DNA from: a virus
Lineage: Duplodnaviria; Heunggongvirae; Uroviricota; Caudoviricetes
IMG/VR virus record: IMGVR_UViG_648276647_000007
DNA: 36,541 bases
Reading direction: 5' to 3' (one strand)
A program made the translations under genes and the position numbers. This document shows, in pieces, positions 1 to 36,541 of this stretch (the first letter of the stretch is position 1; each line of letters opens with the position of its first letter). The notes under the pieces are model-generated. The model had not been told where the DNA came from and ran no database searches. It saw only the letters and a list, made by a program, of their open reading frames with translations.

Positions 1-1
1 A

Positions 2-2248
2 GCCATTACTGATAGTGATGTATCGACAGCTGATTCGTCTTTTACACTGGATGGAGATTCGTCGCCGACGATCTCTGCTGATAGCCAATCCACTTATCCG
101 ATAGTATTAAGCCTGAAAGATAGTAACGGTAAGGCATTAACCGGACTGGCTGATGACATTGAAATGTCAGTGGAATTTACAGCAGATAGCAATAGTGCTC
201 GACAGCGTGAAACGGTAACTGCTCCGTCATTAGGCGCGGTAGAGGAAATCTCTGCTGGTGTATATCGCTCTGTTCTGGCTGCTGGTTCGCAGGCTGGTAC
301 GGTACGTGTAACTGCAAAAGTTCAGGGAAAAACATTTACTCTCAGTATTAAGCAAACAGCAGCAACAGAACCTGATTCTGAGGTCAGTGCTGTTTTAACC
401 GCTGCACCAGCAGAACAGGTAGTTGGTTACAATATCAATCTACAACTGGCAGTGAAGGATTCACAAGGAAATGCAATCACTGGTGATAACACTCTGAGCT
501 TTTATGCTCTTAACCAGGCAGAAGGAGTCGAGTTTGGGACTGTAACGGAAAAAGACGGTGTCTATAGCGCGACAGTAACTTCAAAACGAGCTGGTAAGAT
601 TACTATCGGTGTTAAATCTGATAGTCATGATTTCTCAGGTGTTAAGAAAGAAATCACCTTTATTGAGGACCGGCAGCAGGTTACATTCTCTCAGTTTGAA
701 GCCAGCCAAAATAATGCATTGGCTGATGGAAAACAGAGAAATATGGTAACTGTAAGCCTTGCGGACCGTTTCGGCAATGTTGTTCCTGGTTATGCTGTCA
801 CATTGTCTTTACCAGCAGGGATAACTCAAGTTGGTGGTGAACATGCTGTTTCAACTGACGAAAATGGTAATGCTATTTTTGCGTTAATAAGCTCCACTCC
901 GGGGTCTTACGTGATTACAGCTCATGCTGGTTCTCAGATGTCTACTGAGTTAACAGTGACCTTTGCATCAAATATGACCGGAGCTTCACTGTCACTGACG
1001 CCTGAAAGCAGTAGTTTAATTTCCAATATTCCTGCTAATGGTAAGGATGCAGCGGTATTAGATGTGCAGCTGACAAATACGAATGCGTCGGTCAATGGGC
1101 AAAAGATTCAGCTCATCACCTCATCTGAAGGATTATCTGTACCAACAAATATCGTGACTGATTCAACAGGGCATGTTTCTGTTCCGCTTACAACGGTGAA
1201 AGCTGGTGAGTACACGGTGACTGCACGGGTGACTGACGGTTCCCATAGCGTGGAATCTGGCAGCGTTAAGTTAACTTTTGTGCCCGATGTTGCTTCTGCA
1301 GAACTGAATATGAGTGTATCAAAACAGGAGATTGTGGCCGATGGCAGTGAAAACGCAACAGTAAACATTCAGTTGGTTGATGCGAATAACAATGCGTTTA
1401 CAGGCGAGGTGGATTTAACGATTACACCATCGACGGGAGCATCATTGACCAGTAGTAATCTGCAACTGGATGCTCATGGACAGGCAACAACGCAGTTCAC
1501 TGCATCGAAATCAGGCCAGTACACAATTCAGGCCGAGTATGTTCTGGATGGGAAACGCATAACCGCAAGCCAGAATATTGATGCCGTGACGGATGTGAAG
1601 GGGGCTGTGTTGGAGATCACATCATCTGCATCTTCGGCTGTAGTGAGCGATACCAACAATCTGGTATTTACGTTACTGTTGAAAAGTAAGTCAGGCGAAG
1701 CATTAAGTGGTCGAGCATTGAATGTTAAGACATCTGGGCCGTCTAAATATGGTGCGTTGGTGGTTGATAAAACCACAGTAACGACTGATGAGAACGGTCA
1801 GGCTACGGTAAGCGTACATGGTCGAACGGTTGGTTCGTATAAATTAACGGCGACCTTAAACGAACTTGGCAGTGATGTTAGCGCGGTGAAATCATTCTCC
1901 CTGTACGCTGATGACGCAAATGGAGTATTGACTCTAACAAAAGATCCTGGTTATGAGACAAACGATGGATCTCCAGTAGGTATTTATGCTCGATTTGTCG
2001 ATCATTTTGGAAACCCATTATCTGGTACGGTTGAGTTTTCTGCTGGTAGTGAAGATAGTCCAGACTCTCAACGGGTCAAAATGGAGCCTGCTACAGTAAC
2101 GTTACACTGGACAGGTAATGCAGCTTCGGAATTCAGCACCTATGAAAGTGGTTATCACTGGATTAAGGCCAAAATAACGAATAGCAAAAATACATATGAG
2201 AAAACAATAAGGACTTATGTTGTAAAACTACCTGAAAAGGATAGTTAA
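2..2248 (+). CDS. Invasin/intimin-like adhesin with repeated bacterial Ig-like (Big_1-type) modules; 5'-partial (frame is open from base 2)
   Basis: Reading frame is open from the window edge to the stop at 2246-2248. The protein is built of repeated ~90-100 aa T/S/V-rich modules with recurring motifs (e.g. VTA..G.Y.VTA, ADG...ATV...L.DANGN), typical of inverse-autotransporter passenger domains. Family assignment is from motif recall only. Confidence 0.6.
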   Translation, partial: AITDSDVSTADSSFTLDGDSSPTISADSQSTYPIVLSLKDSNGKALTGLADDIEMSVEFTADSNSARQRETVTAPSLGAVEEISAGVYRSVLAAGSQAGTVRVTAKVQGKTFTLSIKQTAATEPDSEVSAVLTAAPAEQVVGYNINLQLAVKDSQGNAITGDNTLSFYALNQAEGVEFGTVTEKDGVYSATVTSKRAGKITIGVKSDSHDFSGVKKEITFIEDRQQVTFSQFEASQNNALADGKQRNMVTVSLADRFGNVVPGYAVTLSLPAGITQVGGEHAVSTDENGNAIFALISSTPGSYVITAHAGSQMSTELTVTFASNMTGASLSLTPESSSLISNIPANGKDAAVLDVQLTNTNASVNGQKIQLITSSEGLSVPTNIVTDSTGHVSVPLTTVKAGEYTVTARVTDGSHSVESGSVKLTFVPDVASAELNMSVSKQEIVADGSENATVNIQLVDANNNAFTGEVDLTITPSTGASLTSSNLQLDAHGQATTQFTASKSGQYTIQAEYVLDGKRITASQNIDAVTDVKGAVLEITSSASSAVVSDTNNLVFTLLLKSKSGEALSGRALNVKTSGPSKYGALVVDKTTVTTDENGQATVSVHGRTVGSYKLTATLNELGSDVSAVKSFSLYADDANGVLTLTKDPGYETNDGSPVGIYARFVDHFGNPLSGTVEFSAGSEDSPDSQRVKMEPATVTLHWTGNAASEFSTYESGYHWIKAKITNSKNTYEKTIRTYVVKLPEKDS

Positions 2249-2258
2249 CAAAATTGAA

Positions 2259-2287
2259 TGGGGAGGGCTTAGCCCTCCCTCTTTTTA
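2259..2287. terminator. GC-rich hairpin (gggagggc-tta-gccctccc) with T-tract, between convergent genes; probable bidirectional intrinsic terminator
   Basis: Perfect 8-bp inverted repeat at 2261-2279 followed by ctttttac; lies between the adhesin stop (2248) and the esterase stop (2285). Confidence 0.6.
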
Positions 2288-3328
2288 CAGGTTAGCGTTT
2301 GGGTTTTGTTGTTGGGGAGCTGTTTTTATAGGCGCTCCCAGGTTTTTAGTAAACCACTCAACGACTCTGTTTATAATAATTGGCTGATACCATGTCTTAT
2401 CGCCATGCTCGGCCCCTTCTACCAGCACGTACTCAGCGTTATCACCGTTCTTCTTCAACATCCTGAATAGTTTGGCGCTTTGCTCAGGTGAAACCAGAGT
2501 GTCTTTGCTACCATGCATAATAAGAAATGGGGGTTTTACTCCTTTCATATGTCCGATTGGACTGGCGTTTAGCGCTTTTTCTTTTGACGCTGTGATGGGG
2601 GCTCCCGCAAAATTTCTGAATGCAGGGCCATTGATCATTAAGGCTTCGGTTACGGCAGGAGAGCGATGAACCTCCTGCACTGATTCAGGGAACCCCTCGC
2701 CAATATTCAACAAGTCAGAAATCCCATAAAGTGTGGCAACTGCCTGAACATCTGAGGATTGCTGAAGAAAGTCACCTTTATCAAAGGTTTTGTCACCATT
2801 TGTAGTTCCCATCATCTGGGCAAGCCATCCACCGGCAGAGTCACCCAGAACTCCGATTCTTTGAGGATCAATCCCATAATTGCTGGCATGCTCTCTCAGG
2901 TAACGTATTGCAGCTTTTCCATCCTCAACTGGTGCTGGAAATGTATCAGGAATTGTTCTGTATTCTACAGCGGCCACAACAAAACCAGCTTCTGCCAGAG
3001 CCATTCTCATTTCAATAAATTTGTCATGTTCAGAAGACATGAATCCGCCGCCGGGATAATAAATAATGGCTGGTTTTAAATCATTTGTTCGCGGGACAAG
3101 AACTGACATGTGAAGCTGTCTGACAGAACGAGTTCCTTTTATCTGGGAATAAACAACATCACCAATGAGATCGACCTGGTTTCTGGTCGGTGAAACACTA
3201 ATGATATCTGCACCCGGGGTGTAACCAGGAAGATTAGTCTGGACAGGTGTTGCACAACTCCCGACCGACATGGCCATTGACATACCATACAATAGTGTTG
3301 CAGATGATAATATCTTGTTAATTTTCAT
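2285..3328 (-). CDS. Lipoprotein alpha/beta-hydrolase (esterase/lipase family)
   Basis: 347 aa ORF. N-terminal signal peptide with lipobox (MSVGSC), oxyanion-hole-like YYPGGGF motif and nucleophile-elbow GDSAGG motif of hormone-sensitive-lipase-type esterases. Confidence 0.7.
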   Translation of the reverse strand: MKINKILSSATLLYGMSMAMSVGSCATPVQTNLPGYTPGADIISVSPTRNQVDLIGDVVYSQIKGTRSVRQLHMSVLVPRTNDLKPAIIYYPGGGFMSSEHDKFIEMRMALAEAGFVVAAVEYRTIPDTFPAPVEDGKAAIRYLREHASNYGIDPQRIGVLGDSAGGWLAQMMGTTNGDKTFDKGDFLQQSSDVQAVATLYGISDLLNIGEGFPESVQEVHRSPAVTEALMINGPAFRNFAGAPITASKEKALNASPIGHMKGVKPPFLIMHGSKDTLVSPEQSAKLFRMLKKNGDNAEYVLVEGAEHGDKTWYQPIIINRVVEWFTKNLGAPIKTAPQQQNPNANL

Positions 3329-3775
3329 GTTTTACATGCCTTGACTTATCGGATGAAATTCTCTTACTGAATTTAACGGCAGTTTAATAGCCGTACAACT
3401 CGTGGTAGCCAGGGAAATATCCCAGTCGTGGTTAAGGTTGTACTTGACGGCTATTATTTCAACAATGCTTAAAGTGAGAGCTTAAGGTTATGCGTATGTT
3501 TTACAGTCCGAGTAGATTCTGACCAATAGCTTCTTTGTATAATTCTGTCAGAAATAAATCTTGGCTTGCATGAAGTTTGAGACCTTATCTTGTTTGATTA
3601 TGAATAATCAATTCGCCATAATTGTATCACCGGAGCCTGAACAACTCCGGTGACTTCTGCGCTAAACGGGGACGTTTATGCGCACACACAATCCAAACTC
3701 TCTTCTCCCTTCACAGATGCAGAAATGCACCTGCGTTTTTTTGCATCCAGCGTCTGACCTCTGTGGAGGTGAAGC

Positions 3776-4231
3776 GTGAACCTACCACAAGATGGCATCA
3801 AACTGCATCGCGGTAACTTCATCGCTATCGGCCAGCAGATCCAGCCTTATCTGGAGAACGGAAAATGCTTTCGCATGGTGCTTAAACCGTGGCGTGAGAA
3901 ACGCAGTCTTTCCCAGAATGCACTCAGCCACATGTGGTACAGCGAAATCAGTGAATACCTCATCAGCAGGGGGAAATCGTTCGCTACCGCAGCATGGGTA
4001 AAAGATGCTCTCAAACACACATACCTCGGTTATGAAACCAAGGACCTGGTTGATGTCGTAACCGGCGAAATCACTACTATCCAGTCGTTACGCCATACCT
4101 CCGATCTCGATACCGGAGAGATGTATGTCTTCCTGTGTAAGGTTGAAGCCTGGGCGGTGAATATTGGCTGCCACCTGACTATTCCGCAGAGCTGCGAGTT
4201 CCAGCTGCTGCGCGACAAGCAGGAGGCGTAA
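3776..4231 (+). CDS. ninB: NinB/YbcN-family recombination protein
   Basis: 151 aa, GTG start preceded by GGAGG; position and size match the DLP12-type nin region (ybcN). Homology is from recall, not alignment. Confidence 0.65.
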
Positions 4232-4401
4232 TGGCTACACCGCTTATTCGTGTCATGAACGGACACATCTACAGAGTACCAAATCGTCGTAAGCGTAAGC
4301 CTGAGCTGAAACCATCCGAAATACCAACACTGCTCGGATATACCGCCAGCCTGGTTGATAAAAAATGGTTGCGACTGGCAGCAAGGAGGAATCATGGCTG
4401 A
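4231..4401 (+). CDS. ninE: NinE-family small protein (56 aa)
   Basis: Not in the ORF track (<60 aa). ATG overlaps the ninB stop (TAATG) and is preceded by AGGAGG; basic K/R-rich protein with a C-terminal W-L-R...ARR motif like lambda NinE. Confidence 0.55.
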   Translation: MATPLIRVMNGHIYRVPNRRKRKPELKPSEIPTLLGYTASLVDKKWLRLAARRNHG

Positions 4402-4684
4402 CTTGAGAAAAGCAGCGCGTGGTCGGGAATGCCAGGTAAGAATCCCTGGCGTATGTAATGGCAATCCTGAAACGTCAGTACTGGCACATATCCGGCTGGC
4501 TGGATTGTGCGGTACCGGTATCAAACCGCCAGACCTGATTGCCACCATTGCATGTTCTGCCTGCCACGACGAAATCGACCGTCGCACGCATTTTGTTGAC
4601 GCTGGATATGCAAAAGAATGTGCGCTGGAAGGTATGGCGAGAACACAGGTTATCTGGCTGAAAGAGGGGGTAATTAAGGCGTGA
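4394..4684 (+). CDS. YbcO-like (DUF1364-type) cysteine-rich nin-region protein
   Basis: 96 aa from the ATG at 4394, preceded by AAGGAGG; six Cys plus His residues suggest metal binding. Sits at the nin-region position of DLP12 ybcO. Track ORF 4355-4684 uses an upstream start that lacks an RBS. Confidence 0.6.
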
Positions 4685-5043
4685 ATACTTACTGCATCAC
4701 ACTACCCTGGCCGCCGAGCAATAATCGCTATTACCGCCATAATCGCGGACGCACGCATATCAGCGCAGAGGGGCAGGCATACCGCGATAATGTCGCCCGA
4801 ATCATTAAAAACGCAATGCTGGATATCGGCCTGGCTATTCCTGTGAAAATCAGCATTGAGTGCCACATGCCGGATCGCCGTCGCCGTGACCTTGATAATC
4901 TGCAAAAGGCCGCTTTTGACGCACTCACCAAAGCAGGTTTCTGGCTGGATGATGCTCAGGTCGTTGATTACCGCGTTGTGAAGATGCCCGTTACCAAAGG
5001 TGGGAAGCTGGAGCTGACTATCACTGAACTGGGAGATGAATGA
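4681..5043 (+). CDS. rusA: Holliday junction resolvase RusA
   Basis: 120 aa; sequence ([18 protein letters not shown]...[16 protein letters not shown]...) matches my recollection of DLP12 RusA almost residue for residue. Start overlaps upstream stop. Confidence 0.85.
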
Positions 5044-5180
5044 TGTTTGAGTCTTATATGGCAGAACGTCTTCGCCGCCGCTGGGTGCGCCTGCGCTTAT
5101 ATCGTTTTCCTAGTTCTGTTTTGACCGATTACCGGATACTGAAGAATTACGCCAAAACACTGAAAGGAGCTGCCGCATGA
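5040..5180 (+). CDS. YlcG-like small basic protein (46 aa)
   Basis: Not in the ORF track. ATGATG start overlaps the rusA stop; its stop overlaps the start of the Q-like gene (ATGA). Size and position match DLP12 ylcG. Confidence 0.5.
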
Positions 5181-5866
5181 ATACCCAATATTTACAGTAT
5201 GTCCGCGAGCAACTCATTGTGGCTACCGCTGATTTGAGCGGAGCAACGAAAGGACAGCTTGAAGCCTGGCTGGAGCATGCACAATTTGATACTGGTACAT
5301 ACAAACGAAAGAAGCCGCGCATTCTGGATGAGGTAACTGGCAGGATGATTACGCTGGATAATCCGCCGATTTCCGGTAAGCAGTTGTACGCAAAAGGTTC
5401 ATCCATTGCACTGGTCAGCCAGGTTGAGTTCTCAACCTCGTCATGGCGCCGCGCGGTTCTGTCTCTCGAAGAACATCAGAAAGCGTGGTTGCTGTGGAGT
5501 TACAGCGAAAGTGTTCGCTGGGAACATCAGGTCACCATAACGCAGTGGGCATGGAGCGAGTTTAAGACTCTGTTGGGTACCAGGAAAATTGCAGGTAAAA
5601 CACTGGAACGTTTGAAGAAGTTGATCTGGCTGGCGGCACAGGATGTGAAGAACGAGCTGGCAGGGCGTAAGACCTATGAATACCAGGAGCTGGCATCACT
5701 GGTGGGAGTGACATCAAAAAACTGGTCTGAGACATTTACTGAACGCTGGATTGCAATGAAGCACATTTTTCTACAGCTTGATAGCCAAGCTTTATTGCTT
5801 TTAACGAAAACACGTTCAAAACAAAAGACCATATTTTCACAGCAAGATATTGCAAAACTGGATTAA
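5177..5866 (+). CDS. Late-gene antiterminator, Q-family (QuuD/QuuQ-like, not lambda Q)
   Basis: 229 aa ORF immediately upstream of a promoter/leader/terminator unit and the lysis cassette, which is the canonical Q position. No similarity to lambda Q itself that I can see. Confidence 0.55.
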   Translation: MNTQYLQYVREQLIVATADLSGATKGQLEAWLEHAQFDTGTYKRKKPRILDEVTGRMITLDNPPISGKQLYAKGSSIALVSQVEFSTSSWRRAVLSLEEHQKAWLLWSYSESVRWEHQVTITQWAWSEFKTLLGTRKIAGKTLERLKKLIWLAAQDVKNELAGRKTYEYQELASLVGVTSKNWSETFTERWIAMKHIFLQLDSQALLLLTKTRSKQKTIFSQQDIAKLD

Positions 5867-5878
5867 AAATCATATATT
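5850..5878 (+). promoter_or_regulatory. Candidate late promoter (pR'-like): TTGCAA - 17 nt - TATATT
   Basis: Sigma-70-like -35 (5850-5855) and -10 (5873-5878) with 17-nt spacing, just after the Q-like stop; expected site of Q engagement (qut). Confidence 0.45.
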
Positions 5879-5933
5879 TTATGTAAATCTGATATTTTGC
5901 CAATGTTGTACGCACTGGCAGTAATCCAAATTC

Positions 5934-5970
5934 AAGCCCGAGGTTTAAAGCCTTGGGCTTTTCTGTTTCT
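5934..5970 (+). terminator. Leader hairpin 1 (aagcccgagg...ccttgggctt) followed by T-rich tract
   Basis: Imperfect 10-bp stem with G-U pairs followed by ttttctgtttct; lies inside the late leader. Confidence 0.4.
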
Positions 5971-6045
5971 GAACGGTGAGTAGCCTTCCAACCTACCCCA
6001 GCCAGGGTGTCTTCAGTTGTTGAGTTGATATTGCTTAACCCTCTG

Positions 6046-6072
6046 TTGCCAGCTACATGCTGGCTTTTTTAT
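6046..6072 (+). terminator. tR'-like intrinsic terminator (gccagc-tacat-gctggc + T7)
   Basis: Perfect 6-bp GC stem plus tttttta about 190 nt downstream of the candidate -10. This mimics the lambda pR'-tR' 6S transcript arrangement that Q antiterminates. Confidence 0.55.
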
Positions 6073-6187
6073 TCCAGGCTTGCGGGGAGCATCAACTCCG
6101 TGCTTTGTCGTTAAATTACCCCGTGAGCCTGATTTCTGACATTTAACGTCCCGGCCTTTTGTCGGCGGCGAAACATTGGCTATTCAT

Positions 6188-6493
6188 ATGCACGAAAAAG
6201 AGAGCCTTGCCGGAGCGTTCTGGCTCGTTTTGCTGATCATCGCAGGTTGGGGCGGTCTGGTCCGCTACCTGATAGATGTGAAGCAGAGTAAAGCAACGTG
6301 GAGTTGGATAAATGCTCTGGCTCAAATAGTGGTATCAGGATTCACCGGTGTTATTGGTGGCCTGATCAGCATCGAAAGTGGATTCAGTATTTACATGATT
6401 CTCGCGACAGCGGGGATTAGTGGTGCGATGGGTTCGGTTGCACTGACGTACTTCTGGGAACGACTGACAGGGGTGAAAAATGCAAAATCTTAA
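6188..6493 (+). CDS. Holin (three predicted transmembrane segments; not lambda S)
   Basis: About 101 aa with three hydrophobic helices and a charged C-terminus, directly upstream of and overlapping the endolysin gene. The track ORF begins at a TTG at 6176; first ATG is 6188. Confidence 0.6.
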   Translation: MHEKESLAGAFWLVLLIIAGWGGLVRYLIDVKQSKATWSWINALAQIVVSGFTGVIGGLISIESGFSIYMILATAGISGAMGSVALTYFWERLTGVKNAKS

Positions 6494-6956
6494 TCCTCAG
6501 CGTAAAGCCTTCCTCGATATGTTGGCGTGGTCAGAAGGAACGGATAACGGGCGACAACCGACACGTAACCACGGTTATGATGTTATTGTTGGCGGCGAAC
6601 TGTTTACTGATTACTCCGATCACCCTCGCAAACTTGTCACGCTACACCCCAAACTCAAATCAACAGCCGCCGGACGTTATCAGCTTCTTTCACGCTGGTG
6701 GGATGCTTACCGTAAACAGCTTGGTTTGAAAGACTTCTCCCCCAAAAGCCAGGACGCAGTGGCATTACAGCAGATTAAAGAGCGTGGTGCTTTACCGATG
6801 ATTGATCGCGGTGATATCCGTCAGGCAATCGACCGTTGCAGCAATATCTGGGCTTCACTGCCGGGCGCTGGTTATGGTCAGTTCGAGCATAAGGCTGACA
6901 GCCTGATTGCAAAATTCAAAGAAGCTGGCGGAACGCTCAGAGAGAGTGAGGTATGA
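6480..6956 (+). CDS. R: Endolysin R (lambda-type lytic transglycosylase)
   Basis: 158 aa; near-identical to my recollection of lambda R ([20 protein letters not shown]...[21 protein letters not shown]...). Confidence 0.9.
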
Positions 6957-7405
6957 GCAGAATAACCGCGATTATCTCCGCTCTGGTTATCTGCGTCATC
7001 GTCTGCCTTTCATGGGCGGTTAATCATTACCGCGATAACGCGATTACCTACAAAGCCCAGCGCGACAAAAATGCCAGAGAACTGACGCTGGCGAACGCGG
7101 CAATTACTGACATACAGATGCGTCAGCGTGATGTTGCTGCGCTCGATGCAAAATACACGAAGGAGTTAGCTGATGCGAAAGCTGAAAATGATGCTCTGCG
7201 TGATGATGTTGCCGCTGGTCGTCGTCGGTTGCACATCAAAGCAGTCTGTCAGTCAGTGCGTGAAGCCACCACCGCCTCCGGCGTGGATAATGCAGCCTCC
7301 CCCCGACTGGCAGACACCGCTGAACGGGATTATTTCACCCTCAGAGAGAGGCTGATCACTATGCAAAAACAACTGGAAGGAACCCAGAAGTATATTAATG
7401 AGTAG
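6953..7405 (+). CDS. Rz: Spanin inner-membrane subunit Rz (i-spanin)
   Basis: 150 aa with N-terminal TM segment and coiled-coil body, start overlapping the R stop; lambda Rz-like. Confidence 0.85.
7173..7355 (+). CDS. Rz1: Spanin outer-membrane lipoprotein subunit Rz1 (o-spanin), embedded in Rz in the +1 frame
   Basis: 60 aa; lipobox LVVVGC and proline-rich [15 protein letters not shown] segment as in lambda Rz1; wholly inside Rz. Confidence 0.8.
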
Positions 7406-7445
7406 TGCAGATAGAGCTGCCCATATCGATGGGCAACTCATGCAA

Positions 7446-7739
7446 TTATTGTGAGCAATACACACGCGCTTCCAGCGGAGTATAAATGCCTAAAGTAATA
7501 AAACCGAGCAATCCATTTACGAATGTTTGCTGGGTTTCTGTTTTAACAACATTTTCTGCACCACCACAAATTTTTGCTGCATCGACAGTTTTCTTCTGCC
7601 CAATTCCCGAAACGAAGAAATGATGGGTGATGGTTTCCTTTGGTGTTACTGCTGTAGGTTTGTTTCCAACAGTAAACGTCTGTTGAGCACATCCTGTAAT
7701 AAGCATTGCCAGAGCGGCAGAAAACAACATTTTTTTCAT
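7446..7739 (-). CDS. bor: Bor outer-membrane lipoprotein (serum-resistance factor)
   Basis: 97 aa from MKKM (track ORF extends further 5'); lipobox LITGC; near-identical to my recollection of lambda Bor. Confidence 0.9.
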   Translation of the reverse strand: MKKMLFSAALAMLITGCAQQTFTVGNKPTAVTPKETITHHFFVSGIGQKKTVDAAKICGGAENVVKTETQQTFVNGLLGFITLGIYTPLEARVYCSQ

Positions 7740-8219: not shown

Positions 8220-8546
8220 ATGAAAAGACGCCTTTTACTACTTTTTCTGTTATCTGTCCTGGCAGTGGGATGCTCGCAGCAAAAAGCTGATGAGCCCCGG
8301 CAATTAGTGACGGTGTATCCACGATATCCGGAATATGCTGCAGCAAATTATATCAAGGGGCTGGTTGAGGTTAAGTTCGATATTGGTGCTGATGGGACTG
8401 TGACACGGATCGTTTTTCTCCGCTCAGAGCCTCATAATTTGTTTCGTGATGAAGTGGTGAAGGCCATGGCGAAATGGCGATTTGAAAAGAATCGCCCCTG
8501 TCAGGGAGTGAAGAGACAATTTATCTTTACGCCGTCACGTCCTTGA
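8220..8546 (+). CDS. Small lipoprotein with TonB C-terminal-like domain
   Basis: 108 aa from MKRRLLLLFLLSVLAVGC (lipobox), then a YP.YP...A...G.V.V.F.I..DG.V......S......F...V..A...W.F pattern typical of TonB_C/TolA-like folds. Track ORF 8166-8546 starts upstream with no signal peptide. Confidence 0.5.
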   Translation: MKRRLLLLFLLSVLAVGCSQQKADEPRQLVTVYPRYPEYAAANYIKGLVEVKFDIGADGTVTRIVFLRSEPHNLFRDEVVKAMAKWRFEKNRPCQGVKRQFIFTPSRP

Positions 8547-15406: not shown

Positions 15407-15429
15407 AGGCCGCCTGTGCGGCTTTTTTT
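15407..15429 (+). terminator. Weak hairpin + T7 tract between D and E (partial terminator/attenuator)
   Basis: gccgc-ctgt-gcggc stem followed by ttttttt. Confidence 0.35.
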
Positions 15430-15442
15430 ACGGGATTTTTTT

Positions 15443-18262: not shown

Positions 18263-19003
18263 ATGCCTGTACCAAATCCAGTAATGCCGGTGAAAGGGGC
18301 CGGGACCACCCTGTGGGTTTATAAGGGGAACGGTGACCCTTATGCGAACCCGCTTTCAGACGTTGACTGGTCGCGTCTGGCTAAAGTTAAAGACCTGACG
18401 CCCGGCGAACTGAGCGCTGAGTCCTATGACGACAGCTATCTCGATGATGAAGATGCGGACTGGACTGCGACCGGGCAGGGGCAGAAATCTGCCGGAGATA
18501 CCAGCTTCACGCTGGCGTGGATGCCCGGAGAGCAGGGGCAGCAGGCGCTGCTGGCGTGGTTTAATGAAGGGGATACCCGTGCCTATAAAATCCGCTTCCC
18601 GAACGGCACGGTCGATGTGTTCCGCGGCTGGGTCAGCAGTATCGGTAAGGCGGTGACGGCGAAGGAAGTGATCACCCGCACGGTGAAAGTCACCAACGTG
18701 GGACGTCCGTCGATGGCAGAAGATCGCAGCACGGTGACGGCGACAACCGGCATGACGGTGACACCCGCCAGTGCTTCCGTAGTGAAAGGGCAGAGCACTA
18801 CGCTGACCGTGGCATTCCAGCCGGAGGGCGCAACCGACAAGAGCTTCCGTGCGGTGTCTGCGGATAAAACAAAAGCCACCGTGTCGGTCAGCGGTATGAC
18901 CATCACCGTGAACGGCGTTGCTGCAGGCAAGGTCAACATTCCGGTTGTATCCGGTAATGGTGAGTTTGCTGCGGTTGCAGAAATCACCGTCACCGCCAGT
19001 TAA
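18263..19003 (+). CDS. V: Major tail tube protein V (with C-terminal Ig-like domain)
   Basis: 246 aa from [22 protein letters not shown]...; lambda gpV. Confidence 0.9.
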
Positions 19004-19018
19004 TCCGGAGAGTCAGCG

Positions 19019-19441
19019 ATGTTCCTGAAAACCGAATCATTTGAATATAACGGCGTGACCGTCACGCTTTCTGAACTGTCAGCCCTGCAGCGTATTGAGC
19101 ATCTTGCCCTGATGAAACGGCAGGCAGAACCGGCGGGATCCGACAGCAACCGGCAGGTTACTGTGGAAGACGTCATCAGAACCGGCGCGTTTCTGGTGGC
19201 GATGTCCCTGTGGCATAACCATCCGAAGAAGACGCAGATGCCGTCCATGAATGAAGCCGTTAAACAGATTGAGCAGGAAGTGCTTACCACCTGGCCCACA
19301 GAGGCAATTTCTCATGCTGAAAACGTGGTGTACCGGCTGTCCGGTATGTATGAGTTTGTGGTGAATAATGCCCCCGAACAGGCAGAGGACGCCGGGCCTG
19401 CAGAGCCTGTTTCTGCGGGAAAGTGTTCGACGGTGAGCTGA
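19019..19441 (+). CDS. G: Tail assembly chaperone G
   Basis: 140 aa; lambda gpG. Confidence 0.9.
   Translation: MFLKTESFEYNGVTVTLSELSALQRIEHLALMKRQAEPAGSDSNRQVTVEDVIRTGAFLVAMSLWHNHPKKTQMPSMNEAVKQIEQEVLTTWPTEAISHAENVVYRLSGMYEFVVNNAPEQAEDAGPAEPVSAGKCSTVS
19417..19423 (+). promoter_or_regulatory. Programmed -1 ribosomal frameshift slippery heptamer G_GGA_AAG (G to G-T)
   Basis: Heptamer GGGAAAG sits in the G frame about 6 codons before the G stop; the -1 frame continues as the T ORF (19423-19857). This is the conserved lambda G/GT mechanism. Confidence 0.8.
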
Positions 19442-19857
19442 GTTTTGCCCTGAAACTGGCGCGTGAGATGGGGCGACCCGACTGGCGTGCCATGCTTGCC
19501 GGGATGTCATCCACGGAGTATGCCGACTGGCACCGCTTTTACAGTACCCATTATTTTCATGATGTTCTGCTGGATATGCACTTTTCCGGGCTGACGTACA
19601 CCGTGCTCAGCCTGTTTTTCAGCGATCCGGATATGCATCCGCTGGATTTCAGTCTGCTGAACCGGCGCGAGGCTGACGAAGAGCCTGAAGATGATGTGCT
19701 GATGCAGAAAGCGGCAGGGCTTGCCGGAGGTGTCCGCTTTGGCCCGGACGGGAATGAAGTTATCCCCGCTTCCCCGGATGTGGCGGACATGACGGAGGAT
19801 GACGTAATGCTGATGACAGTATCAGAAGGGATCGCAGGAGGAGTCCGGTATGGCTGA
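19423..19857 (+). CDS. T: T portion of the G-T frameshift fusion tail assembly chaperone
   Basis: -1 frame ORF of 144 aa directly following the slippery site; no independent ATG or RBS, consistent with expression only as a G-T fusion. Confidence 0.8.
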   Translation: MFDGELSFALKLAREMGRPDWRAMLAGMSSTEYADWHRFYSTHYFHDVLLDMHFSGLTYTVLSLFFSDPDMHPLDFSLLNRREADEEPEDDVLMQKAAGLAGGVRFGPDGNEVIPASPDVADMTEDDVMLMTVSEGIAGGVRYG

Positions 19858-22410
19858 ACCGGTAGGCGATCTGGTCGTTGATTTGAGTCTGGATGCGGCC
19901 AGATTTGACGAGCAGATGGCCAGAGTCAGGCGTCATTTTTCCGGTACGGAAAGTGATGCGAAAAAAACAGCGGCAGTCGTTGAACAGTCGCTGAGCCGAC
20001 AGGCGCTGGCTGCACAGAAAGCGGGGATTTCCGTCGGGCAGTATAAAGCCGCCATGCGTATGCTGCCTGCACAGTTCACCGACGTGGCCACGCAGCTTGC
20101 AGGCGGGCAAAGTCCGTGGCTGATCCTGCTGCAACAGGGGGGGCAGGTGAAGGACTCCTTCGGCGGGATGATCCCCATGTTCAGGGGGCTTGCCGGTGCG
20201 ATCACCCTGCCGATGGTGGGGGCCACCTCGCTGGCGGTGGCGACCGGTGCGCTGGCGTATGCCTGGTATCAGGGCAACTCAACCCTGTCCGATTTCAACA
20301 AAACGCTGGTCCTTTCCGGCAATCAGGCGGGTCTGACGGCAGATCGTATGCTGGTCCTGTCCAGAGCCGGGCAGGCGGCAGGGCTGACGTTTAACCAGAC
20401 CAGCGAGTCACTCAGCGCACTGGTTAAGGCGGGGGTAAGCGGTGAGGCTCAGATTGCGTCCATCAGCCAGAGTGTGGCGCGTTTCTCCTCTGCATCCGGC
20501 GTGGAGGTGGACAAGGTCGCTGAAGCCTTCGGGAAGCTGACCACAGACCCGACGTCGGGGCTGACGGCGATGGCACGCCAGTTCCATAACGTGACGGCGG
20601 AGCAGATTGCGTATGTTGCTCAGTTGCAGCGTTCCGGCGATGAAGCCGGGGCATTGCAGGCGGCGAACGAGGCCGCAACGAAAGGGTTTGATGACCAGAC
20701 CCGCCGCCTGAAAGAGAACATGGGCACGCTGGAGACCTGGGCAGACAGGACTGCGCGGGCATTCAAATCCATGTGGGATGCGTGCTGGATATTGGTCGTC
20801 CTGATACCGCGCAGGAGATGCTGATTAAGGCAGAGGCTGCGTTTAAGAAAGCAGACGACATCTGGAATCTGCGCAAGGATGATTATTTTGTTAACGATGA
20901 AGCGCGGGCGCGTTACTGGGATGATCGTGAAAAGGCCCGTCTTGCGCTTGAAGCCGCCCGAAAGAAGGCTGAACAGCAGAGTCAACAGGACAAAAATGCG
21001 CAGCAGCAGAGCGATACCGAAGCGTCACGGCTGAAATATACCGAAGAGGCGCAGAAGGCTTACGAACGGCTGCAGACGCCGCTGGAGAAATATGCCGCCC
21101 GTCAGGAAGAACTGAATAAGGCCCTGAAAGACGGAAAAATCCTGCAGGCAGATTACAACACGCTGATGGCGGCAGCGAAAAAGGACTATGAAACGACACT
21201 GAAAAAGCCGAAGCAGTCCGGCGTGAAGGTGTCTGCGGGCGATCGTCAGGAAGACAGTGCTCATGCTGCCCTGCTGACGCTTCAGGCTGAACTCCGGACG
21301 CTGGAGAAGCATGCCGGAGCAAATGAGAAAATCAGCCAGCAGCGCCGGGATTTGTGGAAGGCGGAGAGTCAGTTCGCGGTACTGGAGGAGGCGGCGCAAC
21401 GTCGCCAGCTGTCTGTACAGGAGAAATCCCTGCTGGCGCATAAAGATGAGACGCTGGAGTACAAACGCCAGCTGGCTGCACTTGGCGACAAGGTTACGTA
21501 TCAGGAGCGCCTGAACGCGCTGGCGCAGCAGGCGGATAAATTCGCACAGCAGCAACGGGCAAAACGGGCCGCCATTGATGCGAAAAGCCGGGGGCTGACT
21601 GACCGGCAGGCAGAACGGGAAGCCACGGAACAGCGCCTGAAGGAACAGTATGGCGATAATCCGCTGGCGCTGAATAACGTCATGTCAGAGCAGAAAAAGA
21701 CCTGGGCGGCTGAAGACCAGCTTCGCGGGAACTGGATGGCAGGCCTGAAGTCCGGCTGGAGTGAGTGGGAAGAGAGCGCCACGGACAGTATGTCGCAGGT
21801 AAAAAGTGCAGCCACGCAGACCTTTGATGGTATTGCACAGAATATGGCGGCGATGCTGACCGGCAGTGAGCAGAACTGGCGCAGCTTCACCCGTTCCGTG
21901 CTGTCCATGATGACAGAAATTCTGCTTAAGCAGGCAATGGTGGGGATTGTCGGGAGTATCGGCAGCGCCATTGGCGGGGCTGTTGGTGGCGGCGCATCCG
22001 CGTCAGGCGGTACAGCCATTCAGGCCGCTGCGGCGAAATTCCATTTTGCAACCGGAGGATTTACGGGAACCGGCGGCAAATATGAGCCAGCGGGGATTGT
22101 TCACCGTGGTGAGTTTGTCTTCACGAAGGAGGCAACCAGCCGGATTGGCGTGGGGAATCTTTACCGGCTGATGCGCGGCTATGCCACCGGCGGTTATGTC
22201 GGTACACCGGGCAGCATGGCAGACAGCCGGTCGCAGGCGTCCGGGACGTTTGAGCAGAATAACCATGTGGTGATTAACAACGACGGCACGAACGGGCAGA
22301 TAGGTCCGGCTGCTCTGAAGGCGGTGTATGACATGGCCCGCAAGGGTGCCCGTGATGAAATTCAGACACAGATGCGTGATGGTGGCCTGTTCTCCGGAGG
22401 TGGACGATGA
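19850..22410 (+). pseudogene. H: Tail tape-measure protein H, interrupted by a 1-nt frameshift near 20781-20784
   Basis: Two ORFs (19850-20824 and 20773-22410, different frames) together span the length and position of lambda H (853 aa). The upstream frame reads ...FKSMWDA then CWILVVLIPRRRC-stop; the other frame continues GCVLDIGRPDTAQEML..., so restoring one base after gatgcg would rejoin them. Confidence 0.8.
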
Positions 22411-24808: not shown

Positions 24809-28210
<3,402 letters not shown>

Positions 28211-28228
28211 ATTTTATAACCCAGATAC

Positions 28229-28254
28229 GGGCGCCAGAAATGGCGCCTTTTTTA
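28229..28254 (+). terminator. Intrinsic terminator after J (ggcgcc-agaaat-ggcgcc + T7)
   Basis: Perfect 6-bp GC stem followed by ttttttta immediately after the J stop. Confidence 0.7.
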
Positions 28255-28277
28255 TTGCAGAAAAGCGAGAGGTAATT

Positions 28278-28877: not shown

Positions 28878-28903
28878 TTAGCCAGGTAACACAGTGTTAT
28901 GAC

Positions 28904-28931
28904 AGCCCGCCGGTTCAGGCGGGCTTTTTTG
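28904..28931 (+). terminator. Intrinsic terminator after lom (agcccgcc-ggttc-aggcgggct + T6)
   Basis: 8-9 bp GC-rich stem followed by tttttt. Confidence 0.7.
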
Positions 28932-28935
28932 TGGA

Positions 28936-30968: not shown

Positions 30969-30980
30969 AAGGAGGAAATA

Positions 30981-31365: not shown

Positions 31366-32223
31366 CTAATTGGGTGATAACAGATCCTGTGTATGGGAGT
31401 TTCCCTTTTTGCGTGCGTTGATGCTGGTAACGGCAAACGTCATGATGAACAAAACCGCGAATAAGACGACAATCGTCGGAGCTGGTGCGCTGTCGATAAA
31501 AAAGGACAACCAGACACCAGTCATTGACACTATTACCGATATGCCAGTCGCCAGTAGGAGCGCAATATGAAAGCGTTGTGTCAGGAGTACCGCAATGGCG
31601 CCAGGCGCAATGAGCAGAGAAATGGAGAGAATGATACCTACCGCTTTCAGCGTCGCCACAATGGTCAGAGAGACCATGCACAGCAGCCCATAATGCAGCC
31701 ATCTCGTATGCAAACCGCTTACCTGCGCCTGTTGATAATCAAAGCTGAACAGCAAAAAATCCCGCCATTTTACGCTAATAACAAGTGTAACCAGCCCGGC
31801 AATAATCATCGTCTGGATTATATCGCCGATGGTTATCCCGAGCATGTCGCCGAAAAGAATATGGTCAAGATGTACGTCTGGTTTGACTGCAATATACAAG
31901 ATCAGACCTGCGGCAAACATGCCAGAAAAAACAATCCCCATCACTGTATCTTGCTTGATTCGGCTGTTGTCTTTCAGGTATCCCGTCGCCACCGCACAGA
32001 ATACTCCGGCGACGAATGCCCCTGTAGCCAAAGGTAACCCCAGAATCCAGGCAAGCACGATGCCAGGAAAAACCGCATGACTCATCGCGTCACCCATCAG
32101 TGCCCAACCTTTCAGGACCAGAAAGACCGACAGCAGCGCACAGGGTATGGAAACTACCAGTGAAATCAGCAGTGCGTGACTCATAAAGGTGAACTGCAGT
32201 GGCTCCAGTAATAATGCCATCAT
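31366..32223 (-). CDS. sitD: Mn/Fe ABC transporter permease SitD (ABC-3 family)
   Basis: 285 aa polytopic membrane protein, last gene of a four-gene minus-strand operon with overlapping start/stop codons; paralogous to the adjacent permease. Confidence 0.8.
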   Translation of the reverse strand: MMALLLEPLQFTFMSHALLISLVVSIPCALLSVFLVLKGWALMGDAMSHAVFPGIVLAWILGLPLATGAFVAGVFCAVATGYLKDNSRIKQDTVMGIVFSGMFAAGLILYIAVKPDVHLDHILFGDMLGITIGDIIQTMIIAGLVTLVISVKWRDFLLFSFDYQQAQVSGLHTRWLHYGLLCMVSLTIVATLKAVGIILSISLLIAPGAIAVLLTQRFHIALLLATGISVIVSMTGVWLSFFIDSAPAPTIVVLFAVLFIMTFAVTSINARKKGNSHTQDLLSPN

Positions 32224-33077
32224 GAGCGATCCTCCAGCGCCTTATGCGCACGCCGACGATTTGCCAAAAGCCCATGGGTGGGCGCAAAGACAAATGCTAA
32301 AAGAAACAGCAGTGTCTGCGCCACCACGATGATTCCACCTGTCGCGCCGTCCAGAAAGTAACTGACCCACGCGCCGAGGAAACTGGTTACACTGCCAATA
32401 GTTACAGCAATCATGAGCAGGCGGGGAAAACGATCGGTTAACAACCATGCTGTTGCACCGGGAGTCACCACCAGACAGATCACCAGAAAGGCACCAACCG
32501 TTTGCAGCGCCGCAACGGTCGAAACCGACAGCAGGGTGAAGAAGAGGAGTTTTAATCTGCCCGGATGCAATCCAATAGCACGGGCGTGATTCTCGTCGAA
32601 AAAGGTCACCATAAGATCTTTCCATTTGAAAAAAAGCACGATGATCGAGAGAATGCCAATGATAGTGAGTTGCAGGATATCCGCCGGATCGATTGCCAGA
32701 ATATTGCCCAGGACGATGGTCTGAATGTTCACAGATGTCGGGTTCAATGACACCATAAACAGCCCCAGGCCAAAAAAGGACGAGAAGATCAGACCGATGA
32801 TGGCATCTTCTTTTAAGCGGGTGCGTTGGTTAAGAAACAGCATGCTGCCCGCAGCCAGTCCGCCGGAAAAGAAGGCTCCCAGAGAAAACGGAAGCCCCAG
32901 CATATATGCCCCCGCAACACCCGGGACAATAGAGTGCGACAACGCATCGCCAATCAGCGACCAGCCTTTTAGCATCAGATAGCATGACAGGAAAGCGCAG
33001 AGACCGCCGACCATCGCCGAGACCCACATCGCATTGAGCATATATTCATAGCTGAAGGGTTCCAGTAGCACGTTCAT
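32220..33077 (-). CDS. sitC: Mn/Fe ABC transporter permease SitC (ABC-3 family)
   Basis: 285 aa polytopic membrane protein; operon position. Confidence 0.8.
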
Positions 33078-33901
33078 CTTTCTTCCCTCTGCACCGCTGA
33101 CGGTCGATGAGCCACAAAAGGGCGTTCATCGTCAGTAATAATGCTTTCTTCCGAGCCGTTAAGTGTGACATGGCGCAGTACGCCGCTAAAAGCCAGCTCT
33201 AGGTTCTCGGCTGTAAAAGTGGTGTCTGTCGGCCCGCTTGCCAGGACGGTGCCTTTGACCATGACCGTATAATCGCAAAATGTCGTGACGGATCCGAGAT
33301 TGTGTGTTGAGACAAGCATCGTTTTGCCTTCCGCGCGTAACTCCCTCAACAGGCTGATGATTTTGGCTTCGGTTTTCACATCAACGCCAGTAAAAGGTTC
33401 ATCCAGCAGGATCACATCACCCTGCTGTGCAATCGCTCTCGCCAGAAAGACGCGTTTCTTTTGTCCACCGGAAAGCTCGCCGATTTGTCGATGGCGAAAA
33501 TTCACCATATCGACACGTTCCAGCGCATCGGTGACAATTTGACGATCCCTCTTTTTGGCGATACGCAACATACCCATATGCCCATAGCGGCCCATCATCA
33601 CCACATCTTCCACCAGTACAGGAAATGACCAGTCAACATCTTCTGACTGAGGGACGTAGGCAACCAGGTTTTTCTGTAACGCCTGTCGCGTGGGAATACC
33701 CAGAACAGATATCTTTCCGCTGGTCAGACGCACAAATCCCATAATCGCTTTAAACAACGTCGATTTTCCGGAACCGTTTACCCCAACCAGAGCGGCAATA
33801 GATCCACTTGGTACTGTGAAGGATGCATCGCGCAGTGCTGTGTGCCCGTTACGCCAGGTGACAGTAACATCATTAACGACAATGCCTGCAGATTGCATCA
33901 T
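33074..33901 (-). CDS. sitB: Mn/Fe ABC transporter ATP-binding protein SitB
   Basis: 275 aa; Walker [13 protein letters not shown] signature LSGGQ, Walker B ILLDEP. Confidence 0.85.
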
Positions 33902-34815
33902 TATTTCTCCCTTTTCCCAGCTTTAATTCCCTGTACCAGCGTACTGGTAGTAACCTTAAGAAGGTCGATATACGTCGGTACCGGGCCGTTTTCTGTGCTC
34001 AGGGAATCGACATAGAGCACACCGCCGTAGTGTGCGCCGGTTTCACGCGCAACCTGACGCGCTGGTTTATCGGAAATCGTACTCTCGCTAAAGACTGCCG
34101 GGATATGATTTTTCTTAACTATATCAACAACCTTACGTACCTGCTGCGGTGTTCCTTGTTGATCGGCATTAATCGGCCACAGATAAAGCTCTTTTAGCCC
34201 CAAATCGCGTGCGAGATAAGAAAAAGCCCCTTCACTGGTGACCATCCATCGCTGATTCTCAGGGAGTTCCGTAATCTGCTTACGCAGGGGGGCAAGGATT
34301 TGGGTAATCTTGGCTTTATAAGTATCGGCATTGCGTTGGTAGGTTTGTGCATTTGCCGGATCGTATTTTATCAACGCATCACGAATATTATCGACGTAAA
34401 TCAGAGCATTATCTGGCGACATCCATGCATGGGGGTTAGGTTTGCCCTCATAGGGTCCTTCGGTGATCCCTACAGGCGTCACACCCGAAGAGACAATTAC
34501 TTCTGGAACCCCATTGAGATGCTGGTAAAAGCGTTGGAACCACAATTCCAGATTCATACCATTGGCAAGAATCAGTTGTGCCCCCTGCGCACGTTTAATA
34601 TCGCCAGGGGTAGGCTGATACTCATGAATTTCTGCACCAGGCTTGGTTATGGATGAGACTTCTGCAGCATCTCCCGCCACGTTTTTGGCCATATCCGCGA
34701 TGATGGTAAATGTTGTAATGACCTTGAATTTTTCAGTTGCACTTGCCTGAAATGCGATCGAGCAGGTGAGTGCGAGCCCCCCCAAGAGCATGGTTACTTT
34801 TTTTATCGAGTGCAT
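33901..34815 (-). CDS. sitA: Periplasmic Mn/Fe-binding protein SitA (TroA/cluster-9 substrate-binding protein)
   Basis: 304 aa with signal peptide; first gene of the operon. Sit/Yfe/Mnt family by motif recall; exact orthologue name unverified. Confidence 0.8.
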
Positions 34816-34847
34816 AATTTAGTACCTATAGTGAGCAAAATTAGAAC

Positions 34848-35513: not shown

Positions 35514-36041
35514 ATGAAAACCTTAAGTGGGAAAGAGTTTAGGAAATTATTTAATCGTTATGAGACAGGATTCTATCTAAGTGAGTTTGAATACTTAAAG
35601 GACTTTGATCCTTTGTTTCCTGAATGCGTAGGGAAAGAATTAAAGTTGGGTTATAAACGAAAAGTTGATGTATGGTGCGAAGAGGATGCTGCGCTATATG
35701 CAGAATTTATAGCTACAAAAGAAAGGCTGAAAAGAGGCCGGTTAATCCTAAAAATAAACCAAGTGTGGTCGCGTGTATATCCTGCTTATATTTATGCAAT
35801 TGAAGAAAGAATAAATGTCAGGGCAAAGGGGAGAGAGTCATTTAAGTATGAAACTGTGCAAGAAAAACAATGTAAACTTTCCATAATGTTAGATGGTCTG
35901 AAAGACCTTGAATGTGAAATAGCTATGATTTCAAGTGAGTTTGAAATTGAAAAACACTCTATGCACTATTTTTATATGATTTTTGATATTGAACGCTATA
36001 TAAATGACTGCAGTTACTTTGTTTTTTCTGGGCTTTGTTGA
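35514..36041 (+). CDS. Hypothetical protein in an AT-rich island; 3' end apparently replaced by the IS end
   Basis: ORF 35502-36041 (first ATG at 35514). Region is visibly AT-rich relative to the rest of the window. The last codons and the TGA stop (36039-36041) lie inside the IS terminal repeat starting at 36031. Confidence 0.4.
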   Translation: MKTLSGKEFRKLFNRYETGFYLSEFEYLKDFDPLFPECVGKELKLGYKRKVDVWCEEDAALYAEFIATKERLKRGRLILKINQVWSRVYPAYIYAIEERINVRAKGRESFKYETVQEKQCKLSIMLDGLKDLECEIAMISSEFEIEKHSMHYFYMIFDIERYINDCSYFVFSGLC

Positions 36042-36541
36042 ATAAATCGAACTTTTGCTGAGTTGAAGGATCAGATCACGCATCTTCCCGACAACGCAGA
36101 CCATTCCGTGGCAAAGCAAAAGTTCAAAATCACCAACTGGTCCACCTACAACAAAGCCCTCATCAACCGTGGCTCCATAACTTTCTGGCTGGACGATGAA
36201 GCTATTCAGGCCTGGTATGAGTCGGCAACGCCTTCATCACGGGGAAGACCTCAGCGCTATTCTGATCTCGCCATCACCACCGTTCTGGTCATTAAACGCG
36301 TGTTCAGGCTGACCCTGCGGGCTGCACAGGGTTTTATTGATTCCATTTTTACACTGATGAATGTTCCGTTGCGCTGCCCGGATTACACCAGTGTCAGTAA
36401 GCGCGCAAAGTCGGTTAATGTCAGTTTCAAAACGTTCACCCGGGGTGAAATCGCGCATCTGGTGATTGATTCCACCGGGCTGAAGGTCTCTGGTGAAGGC
36501 GAATGGAAAGTCAAAAAACACGGACAAAGAACGCCGTCGTA
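36031..36541 (+). mobile_element. IS903-group (IS5 family) insertion sequence, left end and 5' part; continues beyond the window
   Basis: Terminal sequence GGCTTTGTTGAATAAATCGAACTTTTGCTGAGTTGAAGGATCAGATCACGCATCTTCCCGACAACGCAGACC... matches the IS903/Tn903 end as I remember it. Confidence 0.75.
36107..36541 (+). CDS. IS903-group transposase, N-terminal 145 codons (3'-partial at window edge)
   Basis: Frame open from GTG 36107 to the window end, translating to VAKQKFKITNWSTYNKALINRGSITFWLDDEAIQAWYESATPSSRGRPQRYSDLAITTVLVIKRVFRLTLRAAQGF...; absent from the ORF track because no stop is reached. Confidence 0.75.

Follow-up and report, generated by a model that had tools for sequence, protein, structure and literature searches.

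In the window analyzed here, namely, the whole 36,541-nt stretch of the Caudoviricetes virus record IMGVR_UViG_648276647_000007, the nin-type block and late genes of a lambda-like phage directly follow two host-like genes, one for an adhesin and one for a lipoprotein esterase. This arrangement raises the question of where the early genes of the phage are. The initial annotation proposed that the prophage had lost its early region, with the alternative that the adhesin and the esterase are themselves prophage cargo. In this work, we found that the window is very probably part of a full-length lambda-like prophage and that its left edge lies inside an accessory block between the replication gene P and the nin genes. 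The early region appears to be lost because the window starts inside this cargo, where the open reading frame (ORF) of the adhesin, an inverse autotransporter (IAT), is cut by the left edge.

What the initial annotation described within the window is largely accurate. The tblastn searches, for which the Int, cI, O, P, and Ren queries came from both lambda and close relatives, gave no match at E ≤ 1e-3 in the window (best value in positions 1-3800, E = 0.46), and integrase, repressor, and replication genes are indeed missing from it. The ORF map also agrees that a stretch of about 450 bp (3329-3775) is preceded by the esterase gene and the Ig-repeat adhesin gene. This interval measures 447 bp between the start of the minus-strand esterase gene and the GTG start of ybcN. 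The remnants of ren and P that it proposed to look for in this interval were not found; tblastn searches for ren, P, O, cI, and int in 3329-3775 or the rest of the window, together with a word-7 blastn comparison with lambda, returned only chance matches. No known RNA family was detected in 3329-3775 by an Rfam scan of positions 2200-6300 and of the early region of one relative. A start of the adhesin ORF at position 164 is wrong, as frame 2 is open from base 2 to 2248 and runs off the left edge.

The proposed loss of the early region is contradicted by every related genome that we examined, each of which has int, cI, O, and P directly upstream and the adhesin and the esterase inside the prophage. 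This is the arrangement that the initial annotation had itself set against a deletion. When window positions 1-6000 were searched against complete Escherichia coli genomes, matches over at least 80% of the length were found in 498, with the best ones having 99.9-100% identity. In the relative L001 (two mismatches to window 1-6000, 99.97% identity), the 20 kb to the left contains phoQP-purB-hflD-mnmA-nudJ-rluE-icd, then int-xis-...-exo-bet-gam-kil-(variable gene)-S24 repressor, and then cro-YdaT-O-P, followed by the IAT gene, the esterase gene, and ybcN...Q. The end of P and the 3,909-bp IAT gene are separated by a spacer of 250 bp. In the near-identical relatives, int (380 amino acids) and xis are located directly after icd, and the replication proteins of the relatives are recognized by Pfam (Phage_rep_O, 1.1e-33; Phage_lambda_P, 1.6e-61). 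The uropathogenic strain M24 has the same gene order as L001 with an IAT gene of 4,266 bp, and so do ten isolate or metagenome contigs with IAT allele P0028 and five with allele P0030. These two alleles are the ones compatible with the window, and 48 contigs were read for them in total, of which the other 33 were grouped as having mostly the same neighboring proteins. In two of the 48, L025 and L027, a single base is all that separates the sequence from window 1-4748.

The IAT gene practically always adjoins P. A cargo-only probe (IAT leader plus 5′ end) matches 559 of 5,426 complete E. coli genomes, and a probe that joins the 3′ end of P to the 5′ end of IAT is covered over at least 80% in 558. 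The uninterrupted IAT-esterase-ybcN junction is found in 433 genomes, compared with 558 for the P-IAT junction, because insertions of ISEc23 or ISEc52 split IAT from the esterase. These insertion sequences (IS), belonging to the IS66 family (ISEc23) and the IS3 family (ISEc52), are located between the adhesin and the esterase (2248/2285) in a number of genomes, including the relatives H5, H13, H14, and H30/L002, of which at least H13 is O25:H4.

The attachment (att) sites also point to a complete element. The initial annotation had considered att-like repeats bracketing only positions 3700-36000, and none are present: the longest exact direct repeats between 3200-3900 (or 1-3900) and 30900-36541 are 11-12 nt, which is the expectation from shuffled sequences (for 3200-3900, 11 nt compared with 10-11 nt in shuffles). 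The only att-type duplication, of 215-229 bp with 93-98% identity, involves the 3′ end of icd and lies beyond both ends of the window. On the left, L001 positions 7386-7613 match the partial icd found beyond sitA in strain R4 (229 bp, 93%). On the right, contig GL883901.1 (GCA_000176555.2) is the same as window 25502-36541 (0 mismatches in 11,040 bp), which very probably makes it the origin of the window, and extends past the right end of the window to an icd duplicate at window-equivalent positions 38161-38375, followed by ymgL, ycgX, bluR, and bluF. Measured from the window, the att duplicates lie at distances of roughly 11-12.6 kb on the left and 1.6 kb on the right. With the early arm taken from relatives, the att-to-att span is ~48 kb without the IS and ~49.3 kb with it. 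This is the size of lambda, so the prophage appears to be full-length, and its integration site is probably the 3′ end of icd, which is the site of phage 21 and e14.

The window stops short of attR because an IS903-like element lies at its right end. This 1,419-bp element (L009 10530-11948; approximately window 36031 to 37449) is inserted in a prophage gene for a hypothetical protein and cuts it to an ORF of 179 amino acids (window 35502-36041) that is found on one public contig only (GL883901.1). An icd-flanked sit region has been catalogued in the genome of an extraintestinal pathogenic E. coli (ExPEC), namely, as GR 8 of BEN2908 (PMC12928451), and GR 8 may correspond to the present element.

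Consistent with the cargo reading that the initial annotation offered as its alternative, the adhesin and the esterase lie between P and nin and inside the att sites, and the esterase is also found in virion-derived phages. Comparison with relatives indicates an accessory block of 5.5 kb in the P-nin slot that comprises two independent cassettes, one of 4.2 kb with IAT and one of 1.3 kb with the esterase. The IAT cassette contains a 30%-GC (guanine plus cytosine) leader, the IAT gene oriented along the early-right operon, and a terminator of its own. The esterase cassette (2281-3592) is transcribed antisense to the phage operon. Phage PhiR47_2 matches L001 at 97.4% identity through cI...P up to L001 position 18079 and matches again at 99.5% from window 2281. 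The left break, which precedes the stop codon of P by eleven bases, coincides with the P stop/ren start junction. At this same point, three phages (lambda, PhiR47_2, and PhiR30_1) have the Shine-Dalgarno sequence and start of ren overlapping P. The IAT cassette occupies the place of ren(-emrE-ybcK), and its right edge is between 2280 and 2281, with homology to esterase-bearing phages beginning at 2281. Esterase-less phages match the window from 3593, and their sequence in the place of 3329-3592 is unrelated. Of the 3329-3775 interval, the initial 264 bp are esterase upstream region, and the remaining 183 bp belong to the conserved regulatory/leader sequence of the phage, which includes an ORF of 33 codons.

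The base composition of the cargo differs from that of the neighboring phage genes. The GC content is 30% in the IAT leader, 44% in IAT, 45% in the esterase gene, and 38% in 3329-3592, compared with 53% in P, 50% in nin-Q, and 57% in the late genes. Where the IAT and esterase genes converge, a strong terminator is formed by a GC stem of 9 bp, which is followed by a clear T-run on the plus strand and by a weaker tail on the minus strand. No target-site duplication or terminal inverted repeat was identified at the three cassette boundaries, where the longest shared word is 7-9 nt. The cargo block is carried by mosaics with two different Q/lysis modules.

Inverse autotransporters are known from several E. 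coli loci. The IAT gene in question starts 1,661 bp to the left of the window, and in L001 it has 3,909 bp and encodes 1,302 amino acids (coding sequence 18340..22248). It is annotated there as "inverse autotransporter beta domain-containing protein" and elsewhere in public records as "adhesin" or "invasin". The protein has a signal sequence, an IAT_beta domain (PF11924; residues 57-334, 1e-100), five Big_1 domains, and six Invasin_D3 domains, and its barrel is homologous to those of invasin (4E1T) and intimin (4E1S). From this domain structure, the adhesin is classified as a predicted type Ve inverse autotransporter. Neither a LysM domain nor a C-type lectin tip was detected by Pfam. The protein is below the NCBIfam cut-offs for IatC (388 vs. 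2400 bits), intimin (332 vs. 1400), SinH/IatB (318 vs. 999), and YchO/IatA (272 vs. 508), as well as those for Ilp, YrIlm, and Inv; FdeC, YeeJ, and IatD are not among the NCBIfam matches. It belongs to phrog_7803 and phrog_16344, both of unknown function. The gene contains 2.0 copies of a tandem repeat of 357 bp with 98% identity (L001 19649-20354, window 1-354), and the left edge of the window is inside the second copy. Public alleles encode 1,302, 1,421, or 1,540 amino acids, which are steps of 119 residues or one 357-bp unit, and the length of the passenger appears to vary with the repeat copy number.

The gene on the minus strand encodes a predicted lipoprotein esterase. The product matches the Pfam family BD-FAE with 153.9 bits (cut-off 26.8; 5.7e-45), which places it in the BD-FAE/Abhydrolase_3 fold-3 family, and it belongs to PHROG 3341 "esterase" (1.9e-129). 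The nearest solved structure is that of a metagenomic lipase (6NKF, 1.6e-37), and the nucleophile-elbow motif GDSAGG aligns with the motif of 6NKF. The N-terminal signal sequence closes with the lipobox VGSC (…MSVGSC). The same esterase is present in the same slot in seven phages, namely, 4A7, PhiR47_2, D2, 1W, 3W, Lambda_4C10, and Perceval.

Modular exchange and the acquisition of morons form the classic pattern of lambdoid phages, as seen in comparisons of HK97, HK022, and lambda. The moron concept is said to come from Hendrix and colleagues and their HK97/HK022 comparisons. The IAT and esterase genes may be regarded as morons, namely, cassettes of foreign composition with transcription signals of their own; the moron traits found here are the sharp homology breaks relative to relatives (L001 18079, window 2281, and ~3593), the terminator, and the deviant base composition. 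Both genes would presumably be expressed while the prophage is repressed, to the advantage of the lysogen, and be carried passively through the lytic cycle. Being oriented against the phage operon, the esterase gene cannot use pR. By analogy with IatB/C/D, YeeJ, and FdeC (PMC6714894), the IAT may function in surface adhesion or biofilm formation, and the esterase may act at the cell envelope. The two would then join iss/bor, lom, and sitABCD as lysogenic-conversion cargo.

The conserved phage backbone resumes between the esterase upstream region and ybcN. The claim that the first phage gene is ninB at 3776 stands in that a YbcN/NinB-family gene occupies this position (3776-4231), but the conserved backbone begins earlier, at ~3593. 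The gene is assigned to the YbcN/orf151 branch because its match to Pfam NinB is borderline (23.7 bits vs. a cut-off of 23.8), whereas those to PHROG 72 NinB/Orf (2e-51) and NCBIfam PRK09741 (YbcN; 1.3e-82) are clear. The window ybcN...Q segment is 95.5% identical to orf151...Q of phage 82. We aligned five elements (the window, phage 82, DLP12, PhiR30_1, and an O157-type prophage), which represent four unrelated upstream sequences, as phage 82 and DLP12 share theirs. The five become alignable from "TTTTGATT" (window ~3591) and are then 85-100% conserved. The phage 82 record X92588 annotates a putative -35 (corresponding to 3594-3599), a putative -10 (3617-3622), a ribosome-binding site, orf33 (3678-3779), which overlaps the ybcN start, and orf151 (ybcN). 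Our promoter scan independently chose the same hexamers as a putative sigma-70 promoter (TTGATT-17-CATAAT). An inverted repeat equivalent to window 3626-3654 is marked in the same record as a possible regulator-binding site. In the window, this repeat directly follows the promoter-like element and has perfect 9-bp arms, TCACCGGAG-N9-CTCCGGTGA (3627-3653); its stem is unchanged in four of the five aligned elements, the exception being PhiR30_1, where the left arm carries a C→T change.

Several explanations other than a full-length prophage have to be weighed. The early region could have been truly deleted in the strain from which the window derives, so that what stands beside the adhesin and the esterase would be a cryptic remnant extending from nin to the tail genes, comparable to DLP12, Qin, or Rac. 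The early genes are absent across the entire 36.5 kb, and what lies upstream in this strain is known through relatives only. However, the IAT ORF runs past the left edge, the IAT 5′ end is joined to P in 558 of 559 genomes, and O-P is upstream in all 48 contigs with a compatible allele. Near-identical relatives (one mismatch in 4.7 kb) are intact, and the att-to-att distance fits a full lambda-size genome, which together make a deletion exceedingly improbable. The notion that the adhesin and esterase genes belong to the host chromosome, with a prophage or remnant merely adjacent, fits their host-like functions (an outer-membrane adhesin and a lipoprotein esterase) and a GC content below that of the phage late genes. 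We find it hardly credible, as both genes are flanked by P and ninB within the prophage, at ~11-12 kb from attL and 36 kb from attR, while the host flanks are icd and ymgL/ycgX. Furthermore, IAT is never seen without P, the esterase occurs in genomes of virion-derived phages such as 4A7, and both proteins belong to PHROG families.

The IAT-esterase block could also be a separate mobile element, such as a transposon, an integrative island, or a recombinase cassette, that was inserted into the prophage. A large serine-recombinase gene, ybcK, adjoins the esterase in sister phages, and IS elements have repeatedly inserted between IAT and the esterase. Such an origin is nevertheless very unlikely, as the three boundaries lack the duplications and terminal repeats of an insertion and the IAT-bearing version has no recombinase or transposase. 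On the left, the boundary coincides exactly with the P stop/ren start junction, and on the right, with the beginning of the conserved promoter-like element common to elements with five different cargos. This pattern is that of homologous or illegitimate exchange at module junctions.

Some observations weigh against the reading of a full-length prophage with phage-borne morons. The early region attributed to this particular prophage is that of its relatives. None of 50,697 deposited phage genome records contains the IAT, the best true phage match being a fragment of 31% identity; packaging of the IAT-bearing version is therefore only presumptive. Promoter-like sites upstream of IAT number three, compared with 1.7 ± 1.3 in shuffled sequences, and a minus-strand scan gave no match for an esterase promoter, which is presumed to lie within 3329-3592. 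Finally, searches of the early region of the relatives gave no N-like antiterminator that would carry early-right transcription past the IAT terminator (2260-2280), and no ORF of at least 40 amino acids exists there between pL and kil. An HK022-type put element was also sought: the pL leader is not repeated in the right operon, similarity to HK022 does not extend beyond cI, and Rfam gave no match.

Transcription of the nin-Q genes may depend either on read-through past the cargo terminator or on the promoter-like element at 3594-3622, and we favor neither route. A doubtful idea is that in this N-less lineage, the element at 3594-3653 makes orf33-ybcN...Q a transcription unit of its own and P-nin an inter-operon gap, with the IAT being a phage-transmitted adhesin in ~10% of complete E. 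coli genomes, including those of sequence type 131 (ST131). If true, such a gap would explain why large cargo that includes terminators, for instance an adhesin gene of 4 kb, builds up at exactly this site. The coordinates of the features identified in the window are summarized in Table 1.

Table 1. Features of the 36,541-nt window, with the evidence for each.
Feature	Position	Strand	Evidence or remark
IAT adhesin gene, 3′ 2,248 bp	1..2248	+	frame 2 open from base 2; annotation of L001; Pfam; GC 44%
Intrinsic terminator hairpin	2260..2280		terminator scan, detected on both strands
Predicted lipoprotein carboxyl/acetyl-esterase, 347 amino acids	2285..3328	-	Pfam BD-FAE; PHROG 3341; homology to 6NKF
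Esterase upstream region, AT-rich	3329..3592		common only to esterase-bearing phages; GC 38%
Start of conserved lambdoid backbone: putative promoter, inverted repeat, most of orf33	3593..3775	+	X92588 annotation; promoter scan; five-way alignment
ybcN (NinB/Orf family), GTG start	3776-4231	+	ORF listing; annotation of relatives; Pfam; PHROG
ninE	4231-4401	+	nin-type block 3776..5866
ybcO	4394-4684	+	nin-type block 3776..5866
rusA	4681-5043	+	nin-type block 3776..5866
ylcG	5040-5180	+	nin-type block 3776..5866
Antiterminator Q	5177-5866	+	nin-type block 3776..5866
iss/bor lipoprotein homologue	7446-7739	-	envelope/host-benefit cargo
TonB C-terminal-domain protein	8220-8546	+	envelope/host-benefit cargo
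lom/Ail-family outer-membrane protein	28278-28877	+	envelope/host-benefit cargo
sitDCBA Mn/Fe ABC transporter	31366..34815	-	annotation of L002; Pfam families in L009; just inside attR, right arm
IS5-family (IS903-like) left end	36031..36541	+	homology to IS-free relatives ends at 36030; terminal sequence GGCTTTGTTGAATAAATCG

Downstream of Q, the window contains, in order, holin-lysozyme-Rz, iss/bor, terminase, head, and tail genes, lom, the tail fiber gene, sitDCBA, and the end of the IS903-like element. A sub-threshold Rfam match to isrJ, a Salmonella small RNA, was observed at 5882-5961 on the plus strand (30.4 bits vs. a gathering score of 37; E = 0.008). This match is directly downstream of Q, which is the expected place of a lambdoid late-promoter leader (qut/6S-like RNA).

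The relatives contain additional variable features. A structured leader of ~190 nt is present between pL and kil (L004 10143-10737). The kil-cI interval, equivalent to rexAB of lambda, is a further variable slot (L001 13624-14637, L011 5474-6337, L014 4659-6307, and PhiR47_2 5404-6832). The contents of this slot, namely, a 337-amino-acid hypothetical protein, DUF7946/DUF7947, DUF4411 with an M78 peptidase, or a GevAT toxin-antitoxin, look like defense-type cargo. A satellite of ~7-10 kb with integrase, HTH, primase, and its own capsid and decoration genes is inserted within the major capsid gene of several of the closest relatives (L001 35688-42595, approximately window 15690; also H26-H28). 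Such a location corresponds to the helper-embedded configuration of phage-inducible chromosomal islands (PMC10111431). The capsid gene in the window (15416-16468) is intact.

The architecture is ordinary, being a textbook case of morons that is already annotated in hundreds of public genomes. It also carries a caution, as a window of fixed size that starts inside phage cargo can make an intact prophage look truncated. The P-ybcN junction is a well-defined cargo hot spot of lambda-like E. coli prophages, and in about one in ten genomes, ST131 strains included, it holds this uncharacterized intimin/invasin-type adhesin with the lipoprotein esterase. If expressed, the adhesin would be another phage-borne colonization factor of extraintestinal E. 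coli. Two aspects are mildly new. One is that the IAT is phage-borne and outside the characterized E. coli IAT groups. The other is that, in a lineage without N, the place where cargo accumulates is directly ahead of a conserved promoter-like element.

Among the E. coli IATs that have been surveyed, namely, intimin, FdeC, YeeJ, and IatA-D, the groups occupy fixed chromosomal sites and phages are not mentioned (Goh et al., 2019; PMC6714894), whereas the present IAT is prophage-borne. In the open-access literature, neither the IAT survey nor ExPEC genome papers describe a prophage-borne E. coli IAT. The lambda morons bor and lom, which have homologues in the window, are similar to the present cargo in being extra genes that are absent in close relatives, have deviant composition and their own terminator, and encode envelope proteins of use to the lysogen. 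The present cargo differs in being unusually large, with 5.5 kb in one slot and a single adhesin of 1,302-1,540 amino acids, and in that its autonomous expression is inferred.

The P(/ren)-ybcN slot has diverse contents among these phages and prophages. It holds ren-emrE/qacE-ybcK-esterase in 4A7 and PhiR47_2, ren-acyltransferase-lipoprotein in PhiR30_1, and ybcK-ybcL-ybcM in DLP12. In other prophages, it contains HEPN and P22AR genes, a DUF4145 gene (NC101), a phosphoribosyltransferase-like/NADAR/MT-A70 set, or IS elements. Like phage 21, e14, and NC-SV of NC101 (PMC12803456), the present element is integrated at the icd 3′ end with a duplicated icd 3′ segment at attR, and the NC101 prophage differs in having the DUF4145 gene in place of IAT and the esterase.

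DLP12 of E. coli K-12 (renD-emrE-ybcK-ybcL-ybcM followed by orf33-ybcN-ninE-ybcO-rusA-ylcG-quuD) and phage 82 (X92588) share the junction at window 3593-3775 with 90.6-95.5% identity. In both, the putative promoter, the inverted repeat, and orf33 have cargo directly upstream, but the cargo genes differ. DLP12 is a defective remnant, whereas the present element has a complete early region, as judged from relatives, and a lambda-size genome. The closest phages, both of them viable, are 4A7 (Bievrevirus bv4A7, NC_049946), whose virion-derived genome is classified by the International Committee on Taxonomy of Viruses, and PhiR47_2 (PV340567), which has E. coli C as its host. Both are 97% identical to the present lineage in cI-cro-YdaT/cII-O-P and 99-99.5% identical in esterase-ybcN-ninE-ybcO-rusA-ylcG(-Q), with the esterase antisense in the same slot and the same 3329-3775 interval. 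They differ in having ren-emrE/qacE-ybcK where the present element has the 4.2-kb IAT cassette and no ren. Taken by sequence similarity, the nin block is of the phage 82/DLP12 type, and the esterase cassette corresponds to that of 4A7.

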